64,000 bases of DNA. Origin: a bacterium. GTDB lineage: Bacteria > Actinomycetota > Acidimicrobiia > Spongiisociales > JAENVV01. Below the pieces are notes generated by a model. The model did not search any database. It saw nothing but the letters and a program-made list of their open reading frames with translations, and was not told the DNA's origin. This document shows positions 11,768 to 60,922 of this stretch, piece after piece. Position numbers and translations under genes: made by a program. Every line of letters begins with the position of its first letter. The stretch's first letter is position 1. Location: the NCBI GenBank assembly GCA_024641305.1, contig JAHEDI010000006.1, forward strand, positions 24,149-88,148. The letters run 5' to 3'.

Positions 11768-12061
11768 ATGCAGCTTGACATCACTCCCGAAGCCATAGCC
11801 CTGGTCCGCCGGAAGGGCGGGGTCATGGCCATCGACTTCATCCCCCCGATCAGTTGAGGCGGAAAGCTTGAGGTGTCGGTCGACACCTACCTCAAAGGCA
11901 AGGATCTGGCCCCCTATCAACGGGTGGAGGTCGACGATGTCCAACTGCATGTGTCGCCGGCACTGTCGACGTGGGCAGATCGAGCCACGGTGACCGTCAG
12001 GTCAGGAGCGCTTGGTAAGAGGTTTGAGATTCTCGCCGACCATAAACACCAACCAACGTGA
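11768..12061 (+). CDS. Candidate selenoprotein, HesB/IscA-like small protein with in-frame TGA at 11855..11857 (predicted Sec)
   Basis: ATG 11768 to TGA 11855 encodes MQLDITPEAIALVRRKGGVMAIDFIPPIS. The same frame continues through the track ORF 11873..12061. The joined 97-aa product resembles IscA/HesB (ITxxA..., KG...I.F....[C/U]GG), with the TGA at the position of the conserved Cys. A SECIS-like hairpin follows. Confidence 0.55.
11871..11888 (+). promoter_or_regulatory. SECIS-like hairpin (7-bp stem AGGTGTC/GACACCT, GGUC tetraloop) 16 nt after the in-frame TGA
   Basis: Read from the sequence. Loop GGUC at 11878..11881 lies 24-27 nt from the U of UGA. The E. coli fdhF SECIS has an identical GGUC apical loop at 22-25. 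Confidence 0.45.
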
Positions 12062-33273: not shown

Positions 33274-34505
33274 TGAAGCTCCTCGAGTTTGTCGTTCTTG
33301 CCAATAACGATGATCCCGCCGTCAGAGACGGTAAATTTCTCCCGGTCGGCGTCGAGATCGACTCCAATCTTCATGCCGGCCGGCACCCAAACGTTCTTGT
33401 CGATGATGGCGTTCCTCACCACCGCTCCCCGACCAACCCTGACGTTCTCGAAGAGGATGGAACCTTCGATCTCTGAGAAAGAGTTGATCCGAACCAGGGG
33501 CGACAGAATCGATTGGACGACGTGACCGCCGGACACCACTGCCCCGGACGAAACCATCGAGTTGATGGCCCGACCGCGCCGCTCACCCTCATTGTGGATG
33601 AACTTGGCCGGAGGGTGGGTCGGCTGCCAGGTTCTGATCGGCCAGGACTCGTTGTAGAGGTCGAAGATGGGATCGAGAGCAATCAGGTCCATCGAGGCTT
33701 CGTAGTATGAATCAATGGTTCCCACATCACGCCAATACCCCAGCTCCCGGTGGCTCTGCCCGGGAACGACGTTGGACGCATAGTCATAGACGTGTGCGAC
33801 TCCCGCCGCCACCAGCGCCGGGATGATGTTTCCGCCGAGGTCGTGCTTGGATTCTTCATCCTCGGCATCGGCCCTGATGACCTCTTCGAGCACATCTCTT
33901 CTGAAGATGTAGCTGCCCATCGAAGCGAACGCGAGAGAAGGATCATCGGGAATCGTTGGCGGAACAGCGGGCTTCTCGACGAAGGCCTTGATGCGACCGC
34001 TGCTATCGGCGTCGATGACTCCAAAATCTGTGGCATCGTTGACAGGAACCCGGATTCCGGCCACGGTGACCCCGGCTCCTGACGCAATATGGGCATCGAG
34101 CATCTGCCTCGGATCCATCCGGTAGATGTGATCGGCACCGAAGACGATGACATGGTCAGGGCGCTCGTCATCAAGGATGTTGAGGTTCTGAAAGATCGCA
34201 TCTGCCGATCCGGAATACCAGCGGGGGCCTCGCCGCATCTGAGCCGGAACGGCGGTGACGTAGTTACCAAGGATCGGCGAAAGACGCCAGGTCTGGCTCA
34301 AGTGCTTGTCGAGACTGTGACTTTTGTATTGTGTGAGAACCGCGATGTGGTGGAAGTGGGCATTTGTGAGATTCGACAGCACAAAGTCGATGAGCCGGTA
34401 ATGGCCACCGAAGGGGACCGCCGGTTTCGCTCGCGATCTCGTAAGGGGATGCAATCGCTTGCCTTCACCGCCGGCCAGGACCATGGTCATAATGCGTTGG
34501 CTCAT
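33270..34505 (-). CDS. glgC: Glucose-1-phosphate adenylyltransferase
   Basis: 411 aa. [24 protein letters not shown] nucleotidyltransferase motif and C-terminal left-handed beta-helix. Confidence 0.9.
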
Positions 34506-34550
34506 GGGGTCAAACTAGTCCGGGGACGTTGCTGGTGTCAGAATGGCGCA

Positions 34551-35024
34551 GTGAAGTATTTCATTTTACTGATCCTCCTCGTGGTTCTTACCGCCTGCGC
34601 TCCACCCGCAAGCCCGGCCTCACCGGTTGCCATCCCCGAGGTAACGGCCGCCGAGTTCCTTGAAACGCTCAAGACCTCCGACCTTCCCATCGTTGTCAAT
34701 GTGTGGGCATCGTGGTGTCTTCCCTGCCGGGCTGAGGCTCCCCTCCTGCGAGAGGCCGCCATCCAATACGCCGGCGCCGTCACCTTTCTCGGCGTTGACA
34801 TTCAGGATCGACCGGAAGACGCGGCCGCCTTCATTGGCGAGTTTCGGTTGGACTTTGACCATGTTGCCGACCCGAACCGCGCCATTCCGGCTGCTCTGGG
34901 GGGGGTCGGCGTCCCCATCACCTACTTCGTCGCTCCGGGGGGGAAAATCATCTCGACGCACGTGGGAATCATCGACGAACGAACCCTCGTGTCCGGCATC
35001 GATGACCTTGTTCGGCAGCCCTGA
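34551..35024 (+). CDS. TlpA/ResA-like thiol:disulfide oxidoreductase lipoprotein (Cys-containing CxxC form)
   Basis: GTG 34551 gives (M)KYFILLILLVVLTAC signal and lipobox. Thioredoxin motif VWASWCLPCRAEAP. Confidence 0.7.
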   Translation: MKYFILLILLVVLTACAPPASPASPVAIPEVTAAEFLETLKTSDLPIVVNVWASWCLPCRAEAPLLREAAIQYAGAVTFLGVDIQDRPEDAAAFIGEFRLDFDHVADPNRAIPAALGGVGVPITYFVAPGGKIISTHVGIIDERTLVSGIDDLVRQP

Positions 35025-40290: not shown

Positions 40291-41697
40291 CTAACGACAG
40301 CCGGCTATCTCGGGAGCGTCGAGTCCAGCCAGTCCGTCGCCCTTCCCCTTCAAGTATCGATCAAAGAAAGAGACGAGCTGCGATTCAACCAGCTCACTAC
40401 TCCGAATAGGGTCGAGGGAACCGCCGATCCCGAGATACTTTGACAGTGGCGACAGCCGCGGGAGGAGGGTGAAATCTCGGTGAGCGGTTCCCATGATGCA
40501 TCCGAAGGACACAACGTCGGCTGAGGCCTCCCGCAGCGTGGCGAGAGGGATCTCGTTCGGCTCACTGAGCCAGGCTTCTGAACGAAGGATCGCCATCGGT
40601 ACGTGAACACCGTCGGCCAGAATCGCCTCATCAACCGGCTCGACCCAGGGATCGAGGCCGTACACCGCCGAGCACCGATCGTCGGTAGCGCAGAACTCGA
40701 TCGCCGCCCCCCCGCCGGTTGAATGGCCGAAAACCCCGATGCGACTCAGATCGAGGCGGCCCGCCATCGGGCCGTGGGCATTGAGGTCCTCGACAGCTAT
40801 CAGGGCCTGGCCGATGTCCAATCGAAAGATGTCAACGAGTGTCTCAGAGGCGGCCGCGTATGCCGCGTCGCCGACCGTTTCCTGGTCGGGAAGGGCGACC
40901 GGATCAAGGGCCGCAAAAGTCGCCCCGTCATCGATGGTGGTTCCCAGAGCGCCGTACGTGTGGTCGATGGCCACGACAACATACCCGGCGGCGGCCAACG
41001 CCTCAGCTTGCGGGAAGGCCACCGTCCGGAAACCGGCCCACCCGTGCGAATACACAACAACCGGATACGGTTCAGATGCGACGGCAACCGGCGCATCGAA
41101 CACGCTGCCCATGGTGGCGTTGCGTAAATGGTTGAGCGCAAACGAAGGCAGTCCGAGGTAGGCGGCGGTGGCTGGAGCAAAGTCGTCGAACGAATCGACA
41201 AAAGGAGCCAGAGGCCCATCACTCGGTTCGGATGGATACCAAATCTGGAGGGTGATCTGGCGGAAGCCACCCGGATTCGGTCCATAGAGCTCCACCCGGT
41301 CAGGACTCACCGATCGCACGGTCATGGTACCGATCGGCGTCGTTGGAGCAGCCAACTGAACCACCGGAAGAGCCAGTGTTGGAATAACCAGCACTCCGAT
41401 CCCCAGAACCCCTGAGAGGCCCTTGCCCAGTTGAGTGACCCGCCGCCGAGGTGCTTCCGGAGATTCCGGGGTGGGCGACACGATCTCCCAGGCGGTCGCC
41501 ACTGAGAGAATCACGACGAGGAGGTAGATGGGATAGAGCTGCCATCGGATGTCTTCAACGCGAACATGCATGAACAACGCCCCGGCGGCGGCCAGAATCG
41601 GTATCCATCCAAAGGGCCGACGCGGCAAGCCGGTAACGGACGGCCACAGGACGAATCCGGCCAACGATCCAACAATTACCAATTCCCACATGCTCAT
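40291..41697 (-). CDS. Membrane-anchored alpha/beta hydrolase (PAF-acetylhydrolase/dienelactone-hydrolase-like)
   Basis: 468 aa. N-terminal TM segments, then VVVYSHGWAGF and GHSTGG nucleophile elbow. Confidence 0.6.
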   Translation of the reverse strand: MSMWELVIVGSLAGFVLWPSVTGLPRRPFGWIPILAAAGALFMHVRVEDIRWQLYPIYLLVVILSVATAWEIVSPTPESPEAPRRRVTQLGKGLSGVLGIGVLVIPTLALPVVQLAAPTTPIGTMTVRSVSPDRVELYGPNPGGFRQITLQIWYPSEPSDGPLAPFVDSFDDFAPATAAYLGLPSFALNHLRNATMGSVFDAPVAVASEPYPVVVYSHGWAGFRTVAFPQAEALAAAGYVVVAIDHTYGALGTTIDDGATFAALDPVALPDQETVGDAAYAAASETLVDIFRLDIGQALIAVEDLNAHGPMAGRLDLSRIGVFGHSTGGGAAIEFCATDDRCSAVYGLDPWVEPVDEAILADGVHVPMAILRSEAWLSEPNEIPLATLREASADVVSFGCIMGTAHRDFTLLPRLSPLSKYLGIGGSLDPIRSSELVESQLVSFFDRYLKGKGDGLAGLDAPEIAGCR

Positions 41698-41706
41698 GCG
41701 GCGAAT

Positions 41707-42444
41707 CTACACAGCTTTGAGATCGAAACCGTACGGCAATTCGAGGCGATGGACCGCCATCATGTCCGGATCGCCGAGCAGTTCCCTGGTTCCGCCATCG
41801 GCTACCAACTTTCCAGCGTCGATAATGACAGCTCGTTCACACAACTCAAGGGCGTAGGGCAGATCATGGGTAACCATGAGCATGGTCACGTCAAGGCCCT
41901 TGAGAATCGTGGCCAGCTCTCTCCGGGAGGCGGGGTCAAGGTTGGAGGAAGGCTCGTCAAGCACCAGAATTTCGGGTTTCGAAGCAAGAACGGTCGCCAC
42001 CGCCACCCGGCGGCGCTCGCCAAGCGAAAGGTGGTGTGGAGCGCGGTCGATGGCGTGCACCATCTCGACCGCGCCGAGTGCGTCCAGGACACGCTGGTCG
42101 AGTTCGTCACCCGAAACGCCGAAATTGGCTGGACCGAACGCGACGTCCTGACGGACGGTTGGCATGAACAATTGATCATCGGGATCCTGAAATACCATTC
42201 CGACTCGGCGCCGAATGTCCATCACCGAAGTGTCGTCGAGCGGCGTTCCCCCGACCACCACTCGTCCGGGTGGAGGCATGTGGATGCCATTCAGATGGAG
42301 GACGAGCGTGGTCTTACCCGCCCCGTTCGGGCCGAACATCGCCACTCGCTCTCCTGCCCCGATCTGGAGATTCACCCCATCGAGCGCCTTGAGACCACCC
42401 GGATAAGAGAACGTGAGATCGGTAACTGAGATCGAGGTGCTCAT
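41707..42444 (-). CDS. nikO: ECF-transporter ATPase (CbiO/NikO-type)
   Basis: 245 aa. Walker A GPNGAGKTT, signature LSLGERRRV, Walker B ILVLDEP. Confidence 0.85.
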   Translation of the reverse strand: MSTSISVTDLTFSYPGGLKALDGVNLQIGAGERVAMFGPNGAGKTTLVLHLNGIHMPPPGRVVVGGTPLDDTSVMDIRRRVGMVFQDPDDQLFMPTVRQDVAFGPANFGVSGDELDQRVLDALGAVEMVHAIDRAPHHLSLGERRRVAVATVLASKPEILVLDEPSSNLDPASRRELATILKGLDVTMLMVTHDLPYALELCERAVIIDAGKLVADGGTRELLGDPDMMAVHRLELPYGFDLKAV

Positions 42445-43208
42445 CCGGAGACCACCAGGGCAACCGCCGCCGTAATGACCGCCAATCCGGGCAATGCCAA
42501 TGCCCGCACCACATCGGCGGTCGACGTCAGGACGTCGCCAAACGTCGGCATGGAGCCCGCGTAACCGCGTGCCACCATCGCCATGTAGACCCGCTCCCCC
42601 CGCTCGTAGGAGCGAATGAACAGCGCCCCGGCAGAGGTGGCGAGTGCCTTCACCTGCCAGAAGGCCTTGGGTTCGTAGCCGCGGGCGGCCATCGCCACAC
42701 GCATACGCGCCATCTCGCCACTTATCACCTCGAGATAACGGACCATGAAACCCGCAATCGCCACGATGGCTTTCGGGGCACGCAGGCGGTTCAGGCCGGC
42801 CAGAATGTTTGGAATCTCCGTTGTGGCTGCCAGCAGAATCGAACCCACGACGCCGCAGGAGCCTTTCGCCAGGATCGTCCAGGCGGCGAGAACCCCGGCC
42901 TCGGACAATCTGACTCCGCCGAATTCGAGAAATGGGCCTTCCCCGACCAACGGGAGCAGCAGTGCAAATGCCAGAAATGGCACCTCAACGAGCATTCGCC
43001 GGGCAATAAACCGGACCGGTACCCCGGCCAGTCCGGCCACCAGACCGAGCACCGATGCGTAGAGGCCAAAAGCCCAGACGGCTCGCGCGGGCGTTGCTAC
43101 CACCGCAACGACGAACAAGAACAGGGCAGCCACCTTCAGATGGCCGGGCAATCGATGCACGACCGAGTGCCCATGAATATGGAGAGCATGCGCGTGGCCG
43201 CCACTCAT
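42441..43208 (-). CDS. nikQ: ECF-transporter transmembrane T component (CbiQ/NikQ)
   Basis: 255 aa, CbiQ-family hydrophobic profile. Overlaps its neighbours by 4 nt. Confidence 0.8.
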   Translation of the reverse strand: MSGGHAHALHIHGHSVVHRLPGHLKVAALFLFVVAVVATPARAVWAFGLYASVLGLVAGLAGVPVRFIARRMLVEVPFLAFALLLPLVGEGPFLEFGGVRLSEAGVLAAWTILAKGSCGVVGSILLAATTEIPNILAGLNRLRAPKAIVAIAGFMVRYLEVISGEMARMRVAMAARGYEPKAFWQVKALATSAGALFIRSYERGERVYMAMVARGYAGSMPTFGDVLTSTADVVRALALPGLAVITAAVALVVSG

Positions 43209-44161
43209 ACCGGTGACCTGCGTCGCAATATAGTAAAGGTAAGCCAGCCCAGAAGAAACGTCACGACCATACCCACCGCAGCAGCCACAATCCGGCCAGC
43301 TCCATCAGAAAGACCGGCTGCCCCGTAGTTCGACAGCGGGGAGGTGGCGATCAAGCTTCCCTGAGCTTCTTGTGCAAGCCCGGTCTGCTCGGCTACCCAC
43401 TGCAACCCGTCGGGGTTCGAGGAGGCGAAGACGGTAAGTGACACCAGCATCGCTGCGGCGACGCCGGCGAGAATCCAAAATCGTTTCATGGGCAGCCGGG
43501 GACTACCTTCGGCGCGCAGGTCGCTCGCTCCAAATACCAGATCAGGTCGGGCCTGAAGGACCGCCCCGACGACCGCCACTGTGATGAAGCCCTCGCCGAT
43601 GCCGATCAGGAGATGGGAGCCAGCCATGAGCAACAAGACGTTGAAAAGGTTGACTCCACCGACCCCACCGATGGCGTATTCGACGACAAACATAACTGCG
43701 GACACCACCACGGACAGGGTCGCCGCCACAAATGAAGCACCGAGAACTGCCCGCCTGGACGGCCGGAATGGAGCCCGGACCAATCGGAACATGAACCAAC
43801 CACTCAGCGTCGTAACCACGGCCATGTTGATCAGGTTTAGGCCGAGTGCCGAGACCCCGCCATCGGCGAACAACATAGCCTGGAGGATGATCACAACTGA
43901 GACGACCACCACTGCCACTGATGGACCCATCAAAATGGCCGCAAGCGCACCGCCGAGTAAATGGCCGCTCATGCCTGGTAGCACCGGGAAGTTGAGCATT
44001 TGCAGCACAAATACGAAGGCCGCCACCAGTCCTGCCAGAGGGATCTGACGGTCCTTGAGACGAGCTGCTGATTGGCGGAGGGCTCCACCGACGCCGCCGG
44101 CGGCAATTACTCCTGCCCCAAGCGACGTGGTGCCGTCAATAAAGCCATCGGGAATGTGCAT
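43205..44161 (-). CDS. nikM: Ni/Co ECF-transporter substrate-capture component NikM/CbiM fused with an N-like C-terminal region
   Basis: Start set at ATG 44161 so the product begins MHIPDGF, the CbiM/NikM N-terminal metal-binding signature. The track's TTG 44179 adds only MQEAIP. Confidence 0.8.
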   Translation of the reverse strand: MHIPDGFIDGTTSLGAGVIAAGGVGGALRQSAARLKDRQIPLAGLVAAFVFVLQMLNFPVLPGMSGHLLGGALAAILMGPSVAVVVVSVVIILQAMLFADGGVSALGLNLINMAVVTTLSGWFMFRLVRAPFRPSRRAVLGASFVAATLSVVVSAVMFVVEYAIGGVGGVNLFNVLLLMAGSHLLIGIGEGFITVAVVGAVLQARPDLVFGASDLRAEGSPRLPMKRFWILAGVAAAMLVSLTVFASSNPDGLQWVAEQTGLAQEAQGSLIATSPLSNYGAAGLSDGAGRIVAAAVGMVVTFLLGWLTFTILRRRSPV

Positions 44162-44173
44162 AGGGATCGCCTC

Positions 44174-44190
44174 TTGCAAGCTGCTTGCAA
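44174..44190. promoter_or_regulatory. Nur-box-like operator TTGCAA-GCTGC-TTGCAA upstream of nikM
   Basis: Perfect 17-bp palindrome read from the sequence. Matches the Streptomyces Nur consensus tTGCAA-N5-tTGCAA. A Fur-family regulator is encoded 700 bp upstream. Confidence 0.6.
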
Positions 44191-44227: not shown

Positions 44228-44848
44228 TTATCCGGCCGTCTCGAGAAGGGAGTCGAGTTCCGCCCGAAGAACCTCTTCGCCGGCTGCACCAGCCCACGAG
44301 GTCTTCACGATTCCATCGTGGGTGATGAGCACGGAAACCGGTTGATAGGGAATCCCATAGGCAGAAAAAACCTTCTCATCGGTGTCTAACCCCCACAACA
44401 CGTTGCCGGACGGAAGCAGTTGGGATGCCCGTTCGGTCGTGTCTTGCAGGGATCCCTTCCACGCCACCGCCAGGAACGTCACCTGGTCTGCATAGTCAGC
44501 CGAAACTTTGTCGATAACGGGTAACTCCCGCTGGCAGGAACTTCACCACTCGGCCCAGAACACCATGTAAACCGGCCGCGACCCTTCCGACAAGGTGAAG
44601 GTCGACCCGTCTGCGAGTACCAGTGAAAAATCGGGGGCAACCGGACCCTCTACCCCGGACGGAGCCCGATCCAACGGCGAGACGGCCGGATCCGCAGTGA
44701 CGACTGAAGTTGTTTCAGTAATGGGCCGGGCAAGTTCGGTCGTGGTCGGTGGATCTCCGGCACCTTGGATCGAAGTGGCCGTGCTCCCGGCCCCGCAGGC
44801 GCTGAGCACGAGGCCAAGGGCGACGAGAACTTTGGCGGAACGGTTCAT
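44228..44848 (-). CDS. Candidate selenoprotein, TlpA/ResA-like thioredoxin-fold lipoprotein with U-x-x-C active site (in-frame TGA at 44545..44543)
   Basis: Track ORFs 44543..44848 and 44228..44482 are in the same frame, separated by one TGA. The joined product is ...VYMVFWAEW-U-SSCQRELPVIDKVSADYADQVTFLAVAWKG..., which aligns to WASWCxPC of TlpA/ResA. Lipoprotein signal MNRSAKVLVALGLVLSAC. A hairpin follows the TGA. Confidence 0.6.
44516..44532 (-). promoter_or_regulatory. SECIS-like hairpin downstream of the in-frame UGA of the TlpA-like gene
   Basis: On the mRNA this is AGCGGG-AGUUA-CCCGUU. 6-bp stem including one G-U pair, 5-nt loop with G21 U22 relative to U1 of UGA. E. coli fdhF has G23 U24. 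Confidence 0.35.
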
Positions 44849-44880: not shown

Positions 44881-45327
44881 TCAACCTAAGTTCCCCGAAT
44901 GTTCACAATCCCGACAATATCCGCCCAGGGCAAAGTGTGATGGGTTGACGGTGAATCCGTAGGAAGCGTGCAATTCCTCGAAGAAGCCGCCCAGTGCTCC
45001 GGCGGGCACGTCGATAGTGGAGCCACAGTTATCGCAAGTCAAGTGGTGATGAGATTCTGACTCACTCAGATGGATCACCCCGGGGCCGTGCCCGAGATGG
45101 ACATGATGGACAACCCCCAGCTGTTCGAAGACCTCGAGCGTCCGATACACTGTCGAGGGGTTGATGGCCTGCTTGGCGATTTTCTGGGCCGCATCGTGCA
45201 CGCCCGCCGAGGTCAGATGTTCGTCGTGCCCATCGGCAATCACCTGGCAAATCGCCCGACGAGCGGCGGTTAGCCGGAGGCCTTTTGCCCGCAAAACGGC
45301 AATCAGGTCATCGGCGGCGACCTGCAT
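44881..45327 (-). CDS. Fur-family metalloregulator (Nur/Zur-like)
   Basis: 148 aa. Winged-helix N-terminus, HHHLTCDNCG and CRDC metal sites. Lies upstream of a Nur-box-controlled nik operon. Confidence 0.8.
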   Translation of the reverse strand: MQVAADDLIAVLRAKGLRLTAARRAICQVIADGHDEHLTSAGVHDAAQKIAKQAINPSTVYRTLEVFEQLGVVHHVHLGHGPGVIHLSESESHHHLTCDNCGSTIDVPAGALGGFFEELHASYGFTVNPSHFALGGYCRDCEHSGNLG

Positions 45328-46418: not shown

Positions 46419-46949
46419 GTGTTCACCGGCGGTGGCACTACCATAGGACGGCAAGATCTCACGAATTGCAGAAAGGAACTCGCCGCGGTGTCTGATACGA
46501 CCCTGTACTTCTCATATACGGCGCTCATGTCGCCATATCGTCTCAGGGACGTAGCACCTGGAGCCGAGTTCCAGTTCATCGCCCACCTCCCTGAAACCAA
46601 GCTCATCTTCCCGTTCGAGCTCGAAGTTGGGGCGGGCGCTCTGCCATCGGTTCGTCCCGAACCAGGGAACACGGTCTGGGGGGCGATGTTCGCCGTCAGC
46701 GATCAGGACCTCGAAGCGATCAGCGCAGCGGAACTCGAAGAGCTGCGCTCCATAACCTACGACTTCAAAGCGGTCGATCGCGAAGGCAAGCGCCACAGCG
46801 TTGTTACCCATATCCATGCGGATACCTCAGATCGGGTGGCGCATCCGTCCAAGAAGTACATGGGCCAGATCGTTCTGGGTGCCCGGCATTGGAAGCTGCC
46901 AACCGGCTGGATTGCCGGACTCGAAGAGCACATGGACAACCCTGCGTAG
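46419..46949 (+). CDS. Gamma-glutamyl cyclotransferase-like (AIG2/GGCT family) protein
   Basis: YFSYTALMS..VWGAMFAV pattern. True start possibly GTG 46488. Confidence 0.5.
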   Translation: MFTGGGTTIGRQDLTNCRKELAAVSDTTLYFSYTALMSPYRLRDVAPGAEFQFIAHLPETKLIFPFELEVGAGALPSVRPEPGNTVWGAMFAVSDQDLEAISAAELEELRSITYDFKAVDREGKRHSVVTHIHADTSDRVAHPSKKYMGQIVLGARHWKLPTGWIAGLEEHMDNPA

Positions 46950-48705: not shown

Positions 48706-48711
48706 ACAAGT

Positions 48712-49102
48712 TTGAGTTCGCCTATAAGCCGGATTCTGTGTCCTGTTTTCTTTCGAGCGAAGCTCGATCGAAACAGGCAGCGACCATCTATCTGGGATTG
48801 CCGTTACCGGTCAACCTCGTGCGGCCTACCCGAGACGTTCACCTCAAACGAGGATCGACGGGCCGTCATAGTCTCTGCATGGCCTTGCTCCGGGCGGGGT
48901 TTACCAGCCGTGCCGGTCACCCGACACGCTGGTGGTCTCTTACACCACCGTTTCACCCTTACCGTGCCTTGCGGCGTTGGCGGTTTTCTTTCTGTTGCAC
49001 TTTCCATCGGCTCGCGCCGCCTGGGGGTTGCCCAGCGCCCTTGCCCTGTGGAGTCCGGACTTTCCTCCAGGATTACTCCCGGCGGTCGCCCGGCGAACTC
49101 AC
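48712..49102 (-). ncRNA. rnpB: RNase P RNA (bacterial type A)
   Basis: The reverse complement carries GGAGGAAAGUCCGGACUCC (P4), ACAGGGCA, AGUGCAACAGAAA, GGUAAGGGUGAAA, GGUAAACCCC and ACAGAAUCCGGCUUAU. P1 forms between GAGUUCGCC (49100..49092) and GGCGAACUC (48722..48714). Confidence 0.85.
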
Positions 49103-57581: not shown

Positions 57582-59519
57582 CTATTTTCTGAGGTAGTCC
57601 CGGACGATCATGTCGCCCAACTCCTCGGAGCGGGCGGCAAACACCCGGCCGTGCACGATCTTCGCCAACCGATCGACAAATGCCACCAGTCCTGGTTCTT
57701 GTTCGAGCATGAAGATATTCATGGTTACTCCGCCCCTGGCGAGTCGCATGGCCTCTTTGAACGTCAGGTCGATCGTTCGGCGCGCCGGAGGCCACTGAAA
57801 GAAAACCTCATCCCCTTCCAGGTGAGCGGTCGGCTCGCCATCGGTGACCAGGAGCACTTGTTTGGTGGCATCCCGATGACGTGCCAGGATCCGACCTGCC
57901 AGATTGAACGCATGTTCCATGTTGGTTCCGTAGACAGGCTCCCAATCGACCTGACCCAGATCGGCCGGCGACATCACCCTGGCATAGTCCGAAAAGGCCA
58001 CGATTTCGAGATGGTCCTCCGGGTAGGCGGTGGTGATGAGGGCGTGGAGCGCCAATGCCATCCGTTTGGCGCCAAGCCAGTGACCCCGTAGCGGCATCGA
58101 GCGGCTCATATCGAGCAACAACACGGTGGCAACCGAAGTCTTGGTCTCGTATTCGGCGATCTCGAAATCCTCCGGTGACAGCTGAATCTGGCCACCCTCT
58201 GAAACACCGCCCCGCACAACCGCATTGCCGAGGGTCCGCTGAAGATCGAGGCGGAACGTATCCCCGTACTTCCAAGGACGCGAGGTGCCGGTCGGTTCTC
58301 CCATCCCTCCCGCCGACGGCACATCATGGGATCCCGGCCTGTCCACGGTGATGTGTTCAAACACTTTCGAGAGCGCCTGCTCGCCGAGTTTGCGGACCCC
58401 GCGCGGTGTCAGCTCCAATCGACCGGAACTCCGCACGACCACCCCGGCCCGTTCAAGGGCTCGCTCAATCTTCTTGAGCCGTTCGAGGTCCCGACGGGCT
58501 TCACCGTCGAGCATTCGGGCTAGTTCCTCCGGGTCGACATCGGCCAAAGAGGCACCCGGATAGTTTTGGCCGAGAGCCCGCTCAAGGTTTTCCATGGCTG
58601 AAAGATCCTCGATGGCGTTCAAAGCCGCCCCCAAACCGTCCGTCGGGCCGCCCGCCCCATCCATGGAACCGTTCCAGTCGAGGCCAGGTGCCAGTGCCCG
58701 CAGTGTATTACCGAGGTGATCCATTTGGAAGGCCAGGTCGAGGTCGTCCATCGCCACGTTCATAAGATCGTCGAGTTCGGCCCGCTGGTCTGGCGAGAGG
58801 TTGGCCATGAACCGGGAGAAGGCCGCCGCTCGTTTGGCCAAGGCTTCGAGCAGTTCGTCGAGCGTGGTCGGATTCTCTGGAAAGAATTCGCCGTGCTTGG
58901 TCATGAAGGCCGCAAACTCTTCGTCGGATGGCCCGGTCCCGGCCTGACGCTGATCAAGGAGACCGTTTAGATCGGCCAACATGTCTTTGAGCGCAGCCAT
59001 CGTTTCGGGATCAGGATCGCTCATCGCCTCGGAAACCTCCCGGAACATGCGATCCATGATGTCTCGGCGGAGTTCGTTGAGCAGATCATCGAACGCCTGA
59101 CGGGCCTCTTCAGACACAAACTCGTATCCTTTCAGCTCGGACAGCGTCTCAGCAAGTGAGTCCGGCAACGCATCGAGCGCCACCTCCCGGAATCGGGCAT
59201 CATCTGAGTCCATCACGGATAGCTCCATCTGCTCCGTGTGAACAATCTCTTCGACCCGCTCACGAATTCGGGCAATCGGCCCGTTCGTGCCAAGGCGGGC
59301 GGCGGCCTCTTGGCGCATGTGTTCGATCCGGGCCCGGAGCTGATCCAAGCCGGAGAACCGGCCAGGCATCCCCTGGCGAAGAAGTCGCTCAAGGGACTCG
59401 TCGACCGACCATCCGTTAAGTAGATCCTCCGACAGTTGCTCGACCAGATCATCAAGCGGCAGCTCGGCGGAAAGCGGATCCTGAGACCCATCCCACGCCG
59501 AATAGCGATTCGGGAGCAT
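57582..59519 (-). CDS. von Willebrand factor A domain protein (ChlD-like)
   Basis: 645 aa. Acidic coiled N-terminal region, C-terminal VWA with MIDAS (LLLDMSRSM). Confidence 0.7.
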   Translation of the reverse strand: MLPNRYSAWDGSQDPLSAELPLDDLVEQLSEDLLNGWSVDESLERLLRQGMPGRFSGLDQLRARIEHMRQEAAARLGTNGPIARIRERVEEIVHTEQMELSVMDSDDARFREVALDALPDSLAETLSELKGYEFVSEEARQAFDDLLNELRRDIMDRMFREVSEAMSDPDPETMAALKDMLADLNGLLDQRQAGTGPSDEEFAAFMTKHGEFFPENPTTLDELLEALAKRAAAFSRFMANLSPDQRAELDDLMNVAMDDLDLAFQMDHLGNTLRALAPGLDWNGSMDGAGGPTDGLGAALNAIEDLSAMENLERALGQNYPGASLADVDPEELARMLDGEARRDLERLKKIERALERAGVVVRSSGRLELTPRGVRKLGEQALSKVFEHITVDRPGSHDVPSAGGMGEPTGTSRPWKYGDTFRLDLQRTLGNAVVRGGVSEGGQIQLSPEDFEIAEYETKTSVATVLLLDMSRSMPLRGHWLGAKRMALALHALITTAYPEDHLEIVAFSDYARVMSPADLGQVDWEPVYGTNMEHAFNLAGRILARHRDATKQVLLVTDGEPTAHLEGDEVFFQWPPARRTIDLTFKEAMRLARGGVTMNIFMLEQEPGLVAFVDRLAKIVHGRVFAARSEELGDMIVRDYLRK

Positions 59520-60922
59520 CAGCTGCGGCCGTACACAGAACTACCGGCTTCGGCGTCCTTGTTCAGGCGACGGGTGAGATGGAGTCCTTCCATGGCAAAA
59601 TCGAGCACGCTCGCCAGGTGATCCGGTGACTCCTCGGCCAGTCCAACCCGCCTGGCGAACTCGGCCAGAACTGCCAGGTGGCCGACTTCGAGGAGCATCG
59701 ACCCGGCCGGAGTCAAGTCACCCGACTCGACGATGACCCCCTCATCGAAAAGGTCGATCAGTTCGGCGAAGTCGACACCGTTTGAGCGATCTCGAAAGAC
59801 CTCGACGACCGCCTGCGCCAGGAGACGGCGCAATACATCCATCTCTCGCCCCTCTTCGAACACTTCGAACTCGACCCGTCCCATCGAGGCGAGCAATACC
59901 GAGGGGAGATCGGCAATCCGGGCTACGGCCTGTCCACTTCCAGTGCGCAAAGCCCGTCGCACGGCCGAAGCGACGATCGTTTCCAGATTGGCAATCGAGA
60001 AGCGGACCGAGACCCCCGACCGCTGATTCACGTGCGACGAGTTTCTCACGGCATGGGTGAACTCGGCCAGGATCTCTTTGAGGAATTCCGGCACCTCGAT
60101 GCTCACACCGGCCGGAGGGGGGGTCGACTCCTGCTCCATGATCATGATCTCGTCGTTGATCGTCATGGGATAGTGGGTACGAACCTCAGATCCGAATCGG
60201 TCTTTGAGCGGGGTAATGATCCTCCCGCGGTTCGTGTAGTCCTCGGGGTTGGCCGAGGCGATGAGCAGGATGTCGAGCGGCAGACTCACCCGGTACCCGC
60301 GGATCTGAATGTCACGCTCTTCGAGCACATTGAGCAACGACACCTGAATCCGGGTAGGAAGATCCGGCAACTCGTTAATCGAGAAGATCCCCCGGTGCGA
60401 ACGAGGCACCAGCCCGTAATGAATGGTCAATTGATCCGACAGATACCGGCCTTCGGCAACCTTTATCGGGTCAACATCACCGATCAAATCAGCTACCGCG
60501 GTGTCTGGCGTAGCGAGTTTCTCACCATAACGAGCCTCAGGAGGCACCCATCGGATCGGCGTCAGGTCGCCTTCCTCGTCGATGAGGTGCAGGCAAAACG
60601 CACACACCGGCCGGAACGGTGAATCATTGATCTCGCAACCTTCGACGGTTGGCGAATACGCGTCGAGTAGGTCGACGAGCCTGCGAATGAGCCGCGTCTT
60701 GGCTTGCCCACGCTCCCCAAGCAAAATGATGTCGTGGCCCGCCAATATGGCTCGCTCCAGGGCCGGGATGACCGTCTGGTCAAATCCGACAATCCCGGGA
60801 AACAGCTCGGCGCCCGCTCGCATCCGCTGCATGAGGTTGTCTCGTAGTTCATCTTTGACGCTGCGATCGACCCAGTCCGATTCCCGCAACGCACCAAGTG
60901 TGGTTATCCCCGTGTGGTCCAT
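59519..60922 (-). CDS. AAA+ ATPase, ChlI/MoxR-like
   Basis: 467 aa. Walker A LLGERGQAKT, Walker B/sensor region GIFSINELPDL. 1-nt overlap with the VWA gene. Confidence 0.7.
   Translation of the reverse strand: MDHTGITTLGALRESDWVDRSVKDELRDNLMQRMRAGAELFPGIVGFDQTVIPALERAILAGHDIILLGERGQAKTRLIRRLVDLLDAYSPTVEGCEINDSPFRPVCAFCLHLIDEEGDLTPIRWVPPEARYGEKLATPDTAVADLIGDVDPIKVAEGRYLSDQLTIHYGLVPRSHRGIFSINELPDLPTRIQVSLLNVLEERDIQIRGYRVSLPLDILLIASANPEDYTNRGRIITPLKDRFGSEVRTHYPMTINDEIMIMEQESTPPPAGVSIEVPEFLKEILAEFTHAVRNSSHVNQRSGVSVRFSIANLETIVASAVRRALRTGSGQAVARIADLPSVLLASMGRVEFEVFEEGREMDVLRRLLAQAVVEVFRDRSNGVDFAELIDLFDEGVIVESGDLTPAGSMLLEVGHLAVLAEFARRVGLAEESPDHLASVLDFAMEGLHLTRRLNKDAEAGSSVYGRS

Follow-up and report, generated by a model that had tools for sequence, protein, structure and literature searches.

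Selenoproteins of the thioredoxin fold that feature a UxxC motif (U denotes selenocysteine, Sec), either TlpA-like or Prx-like, were described in 2004-2005, and are included in current reviews (PMC1088965, PMC9312934, PMC13188914). The 'Thiol-disulfide isomerase-like protein' family (cd02966 TlpA-like / PF13905, UxxC) was first identified in the Sargasso Sea metagenome (PMC1088965). In the model of the bacterial Sec insertion sequence (bSECIS), the hairpin has a stem of 4-16 bp, a loop of 3-9 nucleotides (nt) and an energy of -7.5 kcal/mol or lower; one of the first two loop residues is a G, with G or U as the usual next base, and the distance from the UGA to the loop measures 16-37 nt (PMC13188914).

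The DNA analyzed here, called the window throughout, is a stretch of 64,000 nt from a bacterium of the class Acidimicrobiia (contig JAHEDI010000006.1 of assembly GCA_024641305.1, positions 24,149 to 88,148 of the forward strand). A gene on its minus strand, at 44228-44848, encodes a TlpA/ResA-like protein, and is interrupted by one in-frame UGA at the codon of the first active-site cysteine. This internal stop is almost certainly read as Sec, as judged by sequence comparison. The best explanation of the data, to which we assign a probability of about 0.9, is that the gene encodes a selenoprotein, the UGA being read as Sec by means of SelB and a hairpin located downstream, and that the product would be an exported, lipid-anchored disulfide reductase. 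The elements of the gene are the following.

44228..44848, minus strand: predicted selenoprotein gene of 206 codons, one of them for Sec; start ATG at 44848, stop TAA at 44230-44228
44543..44545, minus strand: in-frame UGA, predicted Sec codon (residue 102), the TGA being aligned with the Cys of FWAEWCPVC
44516..44532, minus strand: SECIS-like hairpin with conserved pairing, also found by RNAalifold, overlapping the codons for Q-R-E-L-P-V
44795..44848, minus strand: lipoprotein signal peptide MNRSAKVLVALGLVLSAC, with lipobox L-S-A-C and Cys18, read from the sequence
about 44648-44794, minus strand: Thr/Pro-rich linker, poorly conserved, with a predicted local distance difference test score (pLDDT) < 50 in the model of a Cys homolog
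44231..44647, minus strand: thioredoxin-fold domain of the ResA/CcmG/TlpA type, residues ~68-206, supported by Pfam and PDB matches and by the model of a Cys homolog

An in-frame UGA at the catalytic cysteine

Translation of the 44848-44228 frame on the minus strand reveals one internal stop only (MNRSAK...PVYMVFWAEW-stop-SSCQRELPVIDK...LLETAG-stop). The residues flanking it read FWAEW-stop-SSCQRELPVID, and the redox motif U-S-S-C corresponds to positions 44534-44545, with Sec at the first, nucleophilic position. Gene callers cut the gene into two open reading frames (ORFs), which encode 101 amino acids (aa) at the N-terminal side and 84 aa at the C-terminal side, and in every database entry found the gene is present as two nameless fragments. 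The first-pass annotation of the window had described two minus-strand ORFs lying in the same frame and parted by a single TGA at 44545-44543, which is what the translation shows, and its description and coordinates of the gene are correct. The TGA had also been placed exactly at the first cysteine of the active site; full-length Cys homologs carry FWAEWCPVCRRELP there.

Conservation of the TGA among relatives

Searches at the protein level identified six full-length relatives (188-218 aa) featuring FWAEWCP[VT]C, and 12 clusters of shorter proteins (115-163 aa; 47-76% identity over the shared part) which stop exactly at ...FWAEW. The DNA of eight truncated forms was fetched, and a TGA was found at the codon in all 11 loci obtained. 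Ten of these reach past the TGA and continue in frame with xxC[QR]RELPV[IV]D and the conserved C-terminal half; the other (L006) ends 3 nt after the TGA.

The family was subsequently sampled across species, one genome per species, which gave 80 loci, nearly all from metagenome-assembled genomes labelled Acidimicrobiia. The scan used two search patterns, and was unbiased toward TGA, because one of the two could match only Cys forms. The codon is TGA in 71 of the 80 loci and TGC or TGT in the remaining nine, and TAA or TAG in none. Among TGA loci the active-site motif U-P-T-C is the commonest; U-G-T-C, U-S-T-C, U-S-S-C (the motif of the window) and others were also found. The corresponding motif of the Cys forms is mostly C-P-V-C. 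In the six full-length proteins (P0001-P0006), as in the nine genome loci, the sequence is FWAEWC..C, and the Cys aligned with the UGA is the first of the thioredoxin CxxC. Two contigs with typical Acidimicrobiia-type Sec forms are labelled otherwise, as 'uncultured Boseongicola sp.' (L034, CAXMMT010000096.1) and as 'uncultured Gammaproteobacteria bacterium' (L071, CAXMPS010000290.1); in both, mis-binning seems a likelier cause than horizontal transfer. Complete genomes with the TGA form include OZ244166.1, OZ244213.1 and OZ244163.1.

The terminal stop of the TGA-form genes is itself TGA in 46, TAA in 18 and TAG in 17 sequences. Since the same gene often ends in TGA, this codon still terminates translation in these organisms, and has not been reassigned genome-wide. 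All 90 complete copies have 102-108 codons between the internal TGA and the real stop, and none of them contains a frameshift or a second stop. Frameshifts and other disruptions in orthologs, which the first-pass annotation had named as signs of pseudogenisation, occur in 0 of 91 sequences. Downstream of the TGA the proportion of nonsynonymous differences (pN) is 0.26 vs a proportion of synonymous differences (pS) of 0.665, and pN/pS is 0.30 in close pairs; judged by these values, the region following the TGA (~104 codons) is under purifying selection. The related loci were obtained from many samples independent of one another, and their proteins diverge by up to 55%. The conserved TGA, the true TGA stops, the fixed length and the excess of pS over pN together rule out that the gene is a pseudogene, that the TGA is a sequencing error, or that TGA has been generally reassigned.

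Of the 9 Cys forms, 8 fall into one clade of a rough neighbour-joining tree (distance-based and midpoint-rooted), and this clade groups with the Sec forms of the U-P-T-C type. This pattern tentatively suggests replacement of Sec by Cys in one lineage.

A hairpin fixed in TGA forms

The hairpin begins 10 nt past the UGA codon, and 16 nt separate the UGA from the loop. In the window the stem is made by residues 14-19 and 25-30 (numbered from the U of UGA as 1), which form the pairs A-U, G.U, C-G, G-C, G-C and G-C. The loop residues A20, G21, U22, U23 and A24 correspond to positions 44526-44522 on the minus strand; residue 24 is R across TGA forms. The first-pass annotation had proposed a hairpin AGCGGG-AGUUA-CCCGUU with G21 and U22 in the loop; it is present at 44532-44516, minus strand, and coincides with the conserved and covarying element described here.

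The 14 nt CGG GAG TTR CCC GT, located from 12 nt after the UGA, show no synonymous variation in 70 unique TGA forms: Arg is always encoded by CGG, Leu always by the rare TTR, Pro always by CCC. Exceptions keep the pairing, as G17A is found together with C27U in L091 (CAG..CCT), and a G.U pair is found in L039. The outermost pair, 14-30, is the variable one: G-C in 50 forms, A-U in 14, G.U in 3, C-G in 1, U-A in 1, with one mismatch (69/70 standard pairs). It joins the second codon position of Gln, Arg or Lys to the silent third position of the Val codon. Paired cells amount to 93.7%, vs 35-72% in controls in which the 3' side was slid by 1-3 nt, and 0 of 500 column shuffles attain any of the observed pairing measures. 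The same six pairs were independently returned by RNAalifold.

All 70 TGA forms fall within the bSECIS constraints, with a loop of 5 nt (AGUUR), a stem of 6-7 bp, G21 and U22 in the loop and a spacing of 16 nt. The window hairpin has an energy of -7.8 kcal/mol, vs a family median of -10.4 kcal/mol. In the nine Cys forms these residues are specified by other codons (CGA/AAG, GAA, CTN, CCG); the energy of the corresponding region ranges from -5.4 to +3.8 kcal/mol, and the hairpin is absent. Because Cys forms encode the same residues without it, the hairpin goes with the TGA, and is not a consequence of the protein sequence. As it partly codes for the catalytic R-E-L-P, we infer that its bases are constrained both as RNA and as coding sequence.

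The predicted protein

The N-terminus features a basic n-region, a hydrophobic core and a lipobox, as judged by motif alone. In the family alignment Cys18 is invariant and Ala17 nearly so, and 86 of 91 loci carry an in-frame lipobox-like motif; the earlier description of the product as bearing a signal peptide agrees with the lipobox and with the invariant Cys18. With Cys substituted for Sec, the product matches in Pfam the families Redoxin (PF08534, 4.3e-12), AhpC-TSA (PF00578, 7.7e-10), PF13905 (Thioredoxin_8, 1.3e-07) and Thioredoxin.

The catalytic motif reads W101-U102-S-S-C105-Q-R-E108-L-P110. Across the alignment W-U-x-x-C-x-x-E-x-P, including E108 and P110, is invariant, as is Y168-Q169-P170. 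We take E108 to be the catalytic Glu, comparable to Glu80 of ResA, and Y-Q-P to be the cis-Pro loop of reductases of the ResA/CcmG branch. Sequence matches in the PDB are headed by Etrx1/2 (4evm/4hqs, 1.2e-11), with 3ios as the third distinct protein (7.7e-11), and include DsbF and ResA. The fold was assessed on the AlphaFold model of P0001, a naturally occurring Cys homolog that shares 50% identity with the window protein; in this model the domain has pLDDT > 90, and the N-terminal beta-hairpin and central insert of the ResA/CcmG-type fold are found. The best Foldseek match of the P0001 model is ResA of B. subtilis (1st9, target-normalised template modelling (TM) score 0.90, root-mean-square deviation 1.5 Å); further matches are DsbE/CcmG, DsbF and Etrx, with target-normalised TM scores up to 0.91.

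The NCBIfam equivalog models are not reached at their cut-offs by the window protein: scores are 55.8 (cut-off 170) for ResA, 31.1 (123) for DsbE, 25.9 (230) for TlpA and 30.8 (210) for StoA. Because all these scores are below cut-off, the protein is a member of the superfamily and not an ortholog of any named enzyme.

A second candidate, and probable Sec decoding in this genome

A second gene of the window is interrupted in a similar manner.

11768-12061, plus strand: second selenoprotein candidate, TGA at 11855-11857, MQLDITPEAIALVRRKGGVMAIDFIPPIS-U-GGKLEVSVDTYLKGK...

Its TGA is kept in two relatives, 68% (L093) and 45% (L092) identical to it. A hairpin AGGUGUC-GGUC-GACACCU, with an energy of -10.8 kcal/mol, is found 20 nt after the UGA, and is identical in all three sequences. 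The GGUC loop is E. coli-like. Homologs found in databases are all C-terminal fragments of 62-64 aa. The only family match of the candidate is NF041239 ('CC/Se motif family (seleno)protein'), weak and below the cut-off (29.4 vs 40 bits), and one homolog shows a weak Pfam match to CC_Se_fam. The first-pass annotation had presented this gene as a companion Sec candidate, HesB-like. The TGA candidate is real; the HesB-like label was discarded, as the gene has no Pfam match, to HesB or otherwise, and its sole family match is the one to CC/Se-motif proteins. Conservation of TGA and hairpin in a second, unrelated gene points to Sec decoding in this genome.

The order Actinomarinales belongs to the class Acidimicrobiia. 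The genes selA, selB, selC and selD have been reported from all 84 complete Actinomarina genomes of this order (bioRxiv 10.64898/2026.04.03.716425). The Sec machinery is presumably present in the source genome of the window as well. Two adjacent ORFs of 467 and 645 aa at 57582-60922 were considered as selA-selB because of their size, and discarded, as Pfam assigns them to MoxR-type AAA and VWA proteins.

Evaluation of the Sec reading and of its alternatives

Every part of the Sec reading that could be checked has been borne out, namely TGA conservation, alignment with Cys, a downstream frame under selection and a covarying hairpin. Several observations weigh against it. The window hairpin is small and belongs to the weakest class; with -7.8 kcal/mol it is barely under the energy threshold of the bSECIS model, and its 16 nt are the shortest spacing which the model allows. 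Folded as a single sequence, the window region is no stabler than its shuffles (z = 0.84), and the minimum-energy fold is a different structure; as the single-sequence fold is unexceptional, the evidence for the hairpin is comparative and not energetic. Rfam returned no match at gathering thresholds, nor at E up to 10 on 44440-44600, a result in line with the poor representation of bacterial SECIS elements (see also bioRxiv 10.64898/2026.04.03.716425). Searches of the 64-kb window and of the 1.37 Mb of related loci detected no selA, selB, selD or tRNA-Sec (selC). ARAGORN detected no tRNA of any kind in the window or in all 92 sequences, a null that says nothing about the genomes, because all loci represent the same syntenic region; tblastn with E. 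coli SelA and SelD queries, a weak test because these are approximate and distant, gave no match in the window or in the loci. All curated NCBIfam selenoprotein models stay below their cut-offs, NF041054 (ResA-like WAxxUGC) scoring 26.7 vs 300, and NF041057 (Rcas_1661 selenolipoprotein) 16.4 vs 190. The modelled structure is that of the 50%-identical Cys homolog P0001, and not of the window protein, and reductase role, electron donor and substrate are deduced from homology only.

Three alternatives to Sec insertion have been considered. The gene could be an ordinary TlpA/ResA-like gene inactivated by a nonsense mutation, with the downstream frame decaying. Its presence as two nameless fragments in gene calls and databases, and the failure to find Sec machinery in the 64-kb window, would agree with a pseudogene. 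This explanation is effectively refuted by the occurrence of TGA, and never of TAA or TAG, at the same codon in 71 of 80 species-level relatives, by the fixed length (102-108 codons) and the intact frame of all 90 complete copies, by purifying selection past the stop, and by compensatory changes that keep the hairpin; nor are the loci assembly artefacts of one sequence, given their independent origins and a protein divergence of up to 55%. The UGA might alternatively be a true stop, separating a 101-aa lipoprotein from a C-terminal protein started internally, the hairpin acting as a terminator, a pause or a re-initiation signal. Gene callers indeed predict downstream ORFs of 79-98 aa, and in 67 of 82 TGA-form sequences (a set which includes the window and the contigs fetched first) translation could first restart in frame at the TTG Leu codon of the loop. 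That codon is TTA in the window and in 14 other unique TGA forms, which precludes a conserved start there; 29 loci lack an in-frame ATG, and its position is not conserved. Each fragment would be a broken thioredoxin fold, with strand 1 and the Trp on one side, and the second Cys, helix 1 and what follows on the other. The interruption coincides exactly with the catalytic Cys, which nine relatives encode in an uninterrupted gene. We consider two separate products extremely improbable.

Recoding without selenium, by which the UGA would be read as Cys, Trp or another standard residue by a near-cognate or suppressor tRNA, with stimulation by the hairpin, is very unlikely too. It would suit the failure to find Sec machinery in the window and in related loci, and a hairpin which is short and matches no Rfam model. 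General suppression does not fit with the 46 relatives in which this gene truly ends in TGA. The position is that of the redox-active Cys of homologs, a classic Sec/Cys pair, and spacing, loop size and loop G-U of the hairpin are those of a bSECIS of the SelB type. Furthermore, the second TGA gene of the window falls in a family curated as (seleno)protein and features a GGUC loop, and relatives of the same class have selA, selB, selC and selD.

If Sec is inserted, decoding and function may be envisaged as follows. During translation Sec-tRNA(Sec), delivered by SelB, would read the UGA at 44545-44543, SelB being recruited by the hairpin located 10 nt past the UGA, with its 6-bp stem and the G21-U22 of its AGUUA loop. 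The protein would be exported and lipidated at Cys18, so that the domain would be held on the outer face of the membrane by the flexible Thr/Pro-rich linker. The selenolate would attack disulfides or sulfenates of exported proteins, to reduce or isomerise them through a selenenylsulfide intermediate with Cys105 as the resolving residue; recycling would presumably depend on a membrane electron carrier of the CcdA/DsbD type. We infer Sec insertion, interaction with SelB, reducing direction, electron donor and substrates.

Genomic context

On the minus strand the gene order is trpD, a Fur-family regulator, the selenoprotein gene, CbiM-PDGLE, CbiQ, an ABC ATPase and a PAF-AH-like membrane hydrolase. 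The elements next to the selenoprotein gene are the following.

44881..45327, minus strand: Fur-family (Nur-like) regulator (Pfam FUR, 1.2e-21)
41707..44161, minus strand: CbiM-PDGLE / CbiQ / ABC-ATPase, Ni/Co uptake of the energy-coupling factor type, NikMQO-like (CbiM 5.9e-56, PDGLE, CbiQ 8.3e-35, ABC_tran)
44174..44190, no strand assigned: Nur box TTGCAAGCTGCTTGCAA (TTGCAA-GCTGC-TTGCAA), between the selenoprotein stop and the cbiM/nikM-like ATG at 44161

The Fur-family gene ends 32 nt upstream of the start of the selenoprotein gene, on the same strand, and in the subclade of the window the two are probably co-transcribed. The consensus of the Nur box, tTGCaa-N5-ttGCAA, has been defined experimentally, and Nur binds the nikM promoter in Streptomyces coelicolor (PMC2691836). 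The box identified here is the sole match to TTGCAA-N5-TTGCAA in the window (0.09 expected by chance); it lies 13 nt upstream of the ATG at 44161, and is kept at the same place in 21 loci. By implication, the Nur box marks the Fur-family gene as a nickel-responsive Nur, and CbiM-PDGLE, CbiQ and the ATPase as a nickel transporter of the NikMQO type. The start of CbiM is likelier to be the ATG at 44161, because the TTG start listed for it (44179) lies inside the box. A gene context made of a Fur/Nur-type regulator and a nik operon had been indicated in the first-pass annotation, and is in line with a conserved, perfect Nur box upstream of the cbiM/nikM-like gene.

A Fur-family gene adjoins the selenoprotein gene in 30 of 80 loci; as the arrangement holds in these loci only, Fur and CbiMQO were rejected as the defining context of the family. 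The neighbours most widely kept are a divergent AIG2/GGACT-like gene (63/80 loci; 46419-46949, plus strand, in the window) and a membrane-anchored alpha/beta hydrolase, PAF-AH-like, usually located directly downstream (61/80; 40291-41697, minus strand, in the window). In about 30 of the 80 loci nur and nikMQO sit between the selenoprotein gene and these two neighbours.

A link to cytochrome c maturation was also considered and rejected. In several relatives a cytochrome c maturation (ccm, System I) cluster is located 4-9 kb away; in the window, ccm genes are absent from the 15 kb around the selenoprotein gene. Because the ccm clusters of relatives hold a Redoxin gene of their own, of the Cys type, the selenoprotein is probably not a dedicated CcmG.

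A paralog of the Cys type was found at ~34560-35024 on the plus strand, within the ORF 34089-35024; it is a TlpA/Redoxin-like lipoprotein with a LLVVLTAC lipobox and a VNVWASWCLPCRAEAP active site, and shows that the genome has both Sec-type and Cys-type exported thioredoxin-like lipoproteins. The window also contains a class A bacterial RNase P RNA at 48709-49101, minus strand (full-length match to RF00010, 279 bits).

Significance and comparison with known systems

Correct annotation of the gene adds a selenoprotein, in at least 71 species-level genomes, to the Acidimicrobiia, a class abundant in soil, sediment and water, in which selenium use is only now being noticed (bioRxiv 10.64898/2026.04.03.716425). 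The family provides a natural Sec/Cys pair (71:9), useful to establish when an exported oxidoreductase, active in an oxidising compartment, benefits from Sec. The hairpin, very short and invariant over the codons of the catalytic motif, is a compact case of dual RNA and protein constraint. Our understanding of Sec decoding and of TlpA-type enzymes is unchanged by the finding. There is also a wider reading, unlikely as a whole, in which the protein would be a class-wide, hitherto unannotated extracytoplasmic selenolipoprotein of the Acidimicrobiia, with Sec ancestral and dominant (~89% of sampled species), the gene of the window's subclade would be inserted in a nickel regulon (nur, Sec-tlpA, Nur box, nikMQO), and the hairpin would rank among the smallest and most closely spaced functional bacterial SECIS elements. 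Placement in the nickel regulon, if true, would couple a selenium-dependent redox step at the cell surface to nickel acquisition, or to a Nur-controlled response to oxidative stress.

By predicted domain and motif, the clade fits the known kinds of UxxC selenoproteins, TlpA-like and Prx-like. As described, the 'Thiol-disulfide isomerase-like' selenoproteins (references MGB1650493.1 and MAK15852.1) share with it a TlpA-like domain and a UxxC motif with Sec in first position. Both groups have been predicted from Sec/Cys pairing and a downstream bSECIS, and the window protein matches PF13905. In contrast to that family, again as described, members of the window clade are lipoproteins with a long Thr/Pro-rich linker, and feature their own fixed SECIS, CGGG-AGUUR-CCCG; as far as sampled, the clade is confined to Acidimicrobiia. 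The 'Prx-like thiol:disulfide oxidoreductase' selenoproteins (PF00578, UxxC/UxxU, WP_010940744.1) similarly have, by description, an AhpC-TSA/Redoxin domain and a thioredoxin-like UxxC, and not the TxxU of peroxiredoxins. They have been described, unlike the window family, mainly from Deltaproteobacteria and marine metagenomes, and UxxU was not found in the window family.

Among Cys enzymes, ResA of Bacillus subtilis, CcmG of E. coli and Bradyrhizobium, and TlpA share the C-x-x-C-x-x-E-x-P signature and tethering to the membrane outside the cell. The window protein differs from them in having Sec in place of the first Cys, and a lipid anchor instead of a transmembrane helix, and is only ~25% identical. 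Etrx1 and Etrx2 of Streptococcus pneumoniae, as DsbE and DsbF of Mycobacterium tuberculosis, are likewise exported or lipid-anchored TlpA-like proteins, from Gram-positive bacteria and Actinobacteria; in contrast to the window protein they are all Cys proteins, and the Etrx partners MsrAB2 and CcdA are not seen beside the window gene. The families NF041057 and NF041054 show that exported thioredoxin-like selenolipoproteins and ResA-like selenoproteins have already been curated. The window protein belongs to neither, and its motif, unlike the WAxxUGC of NF041054, is W-A-E-W-U-x-x-C.

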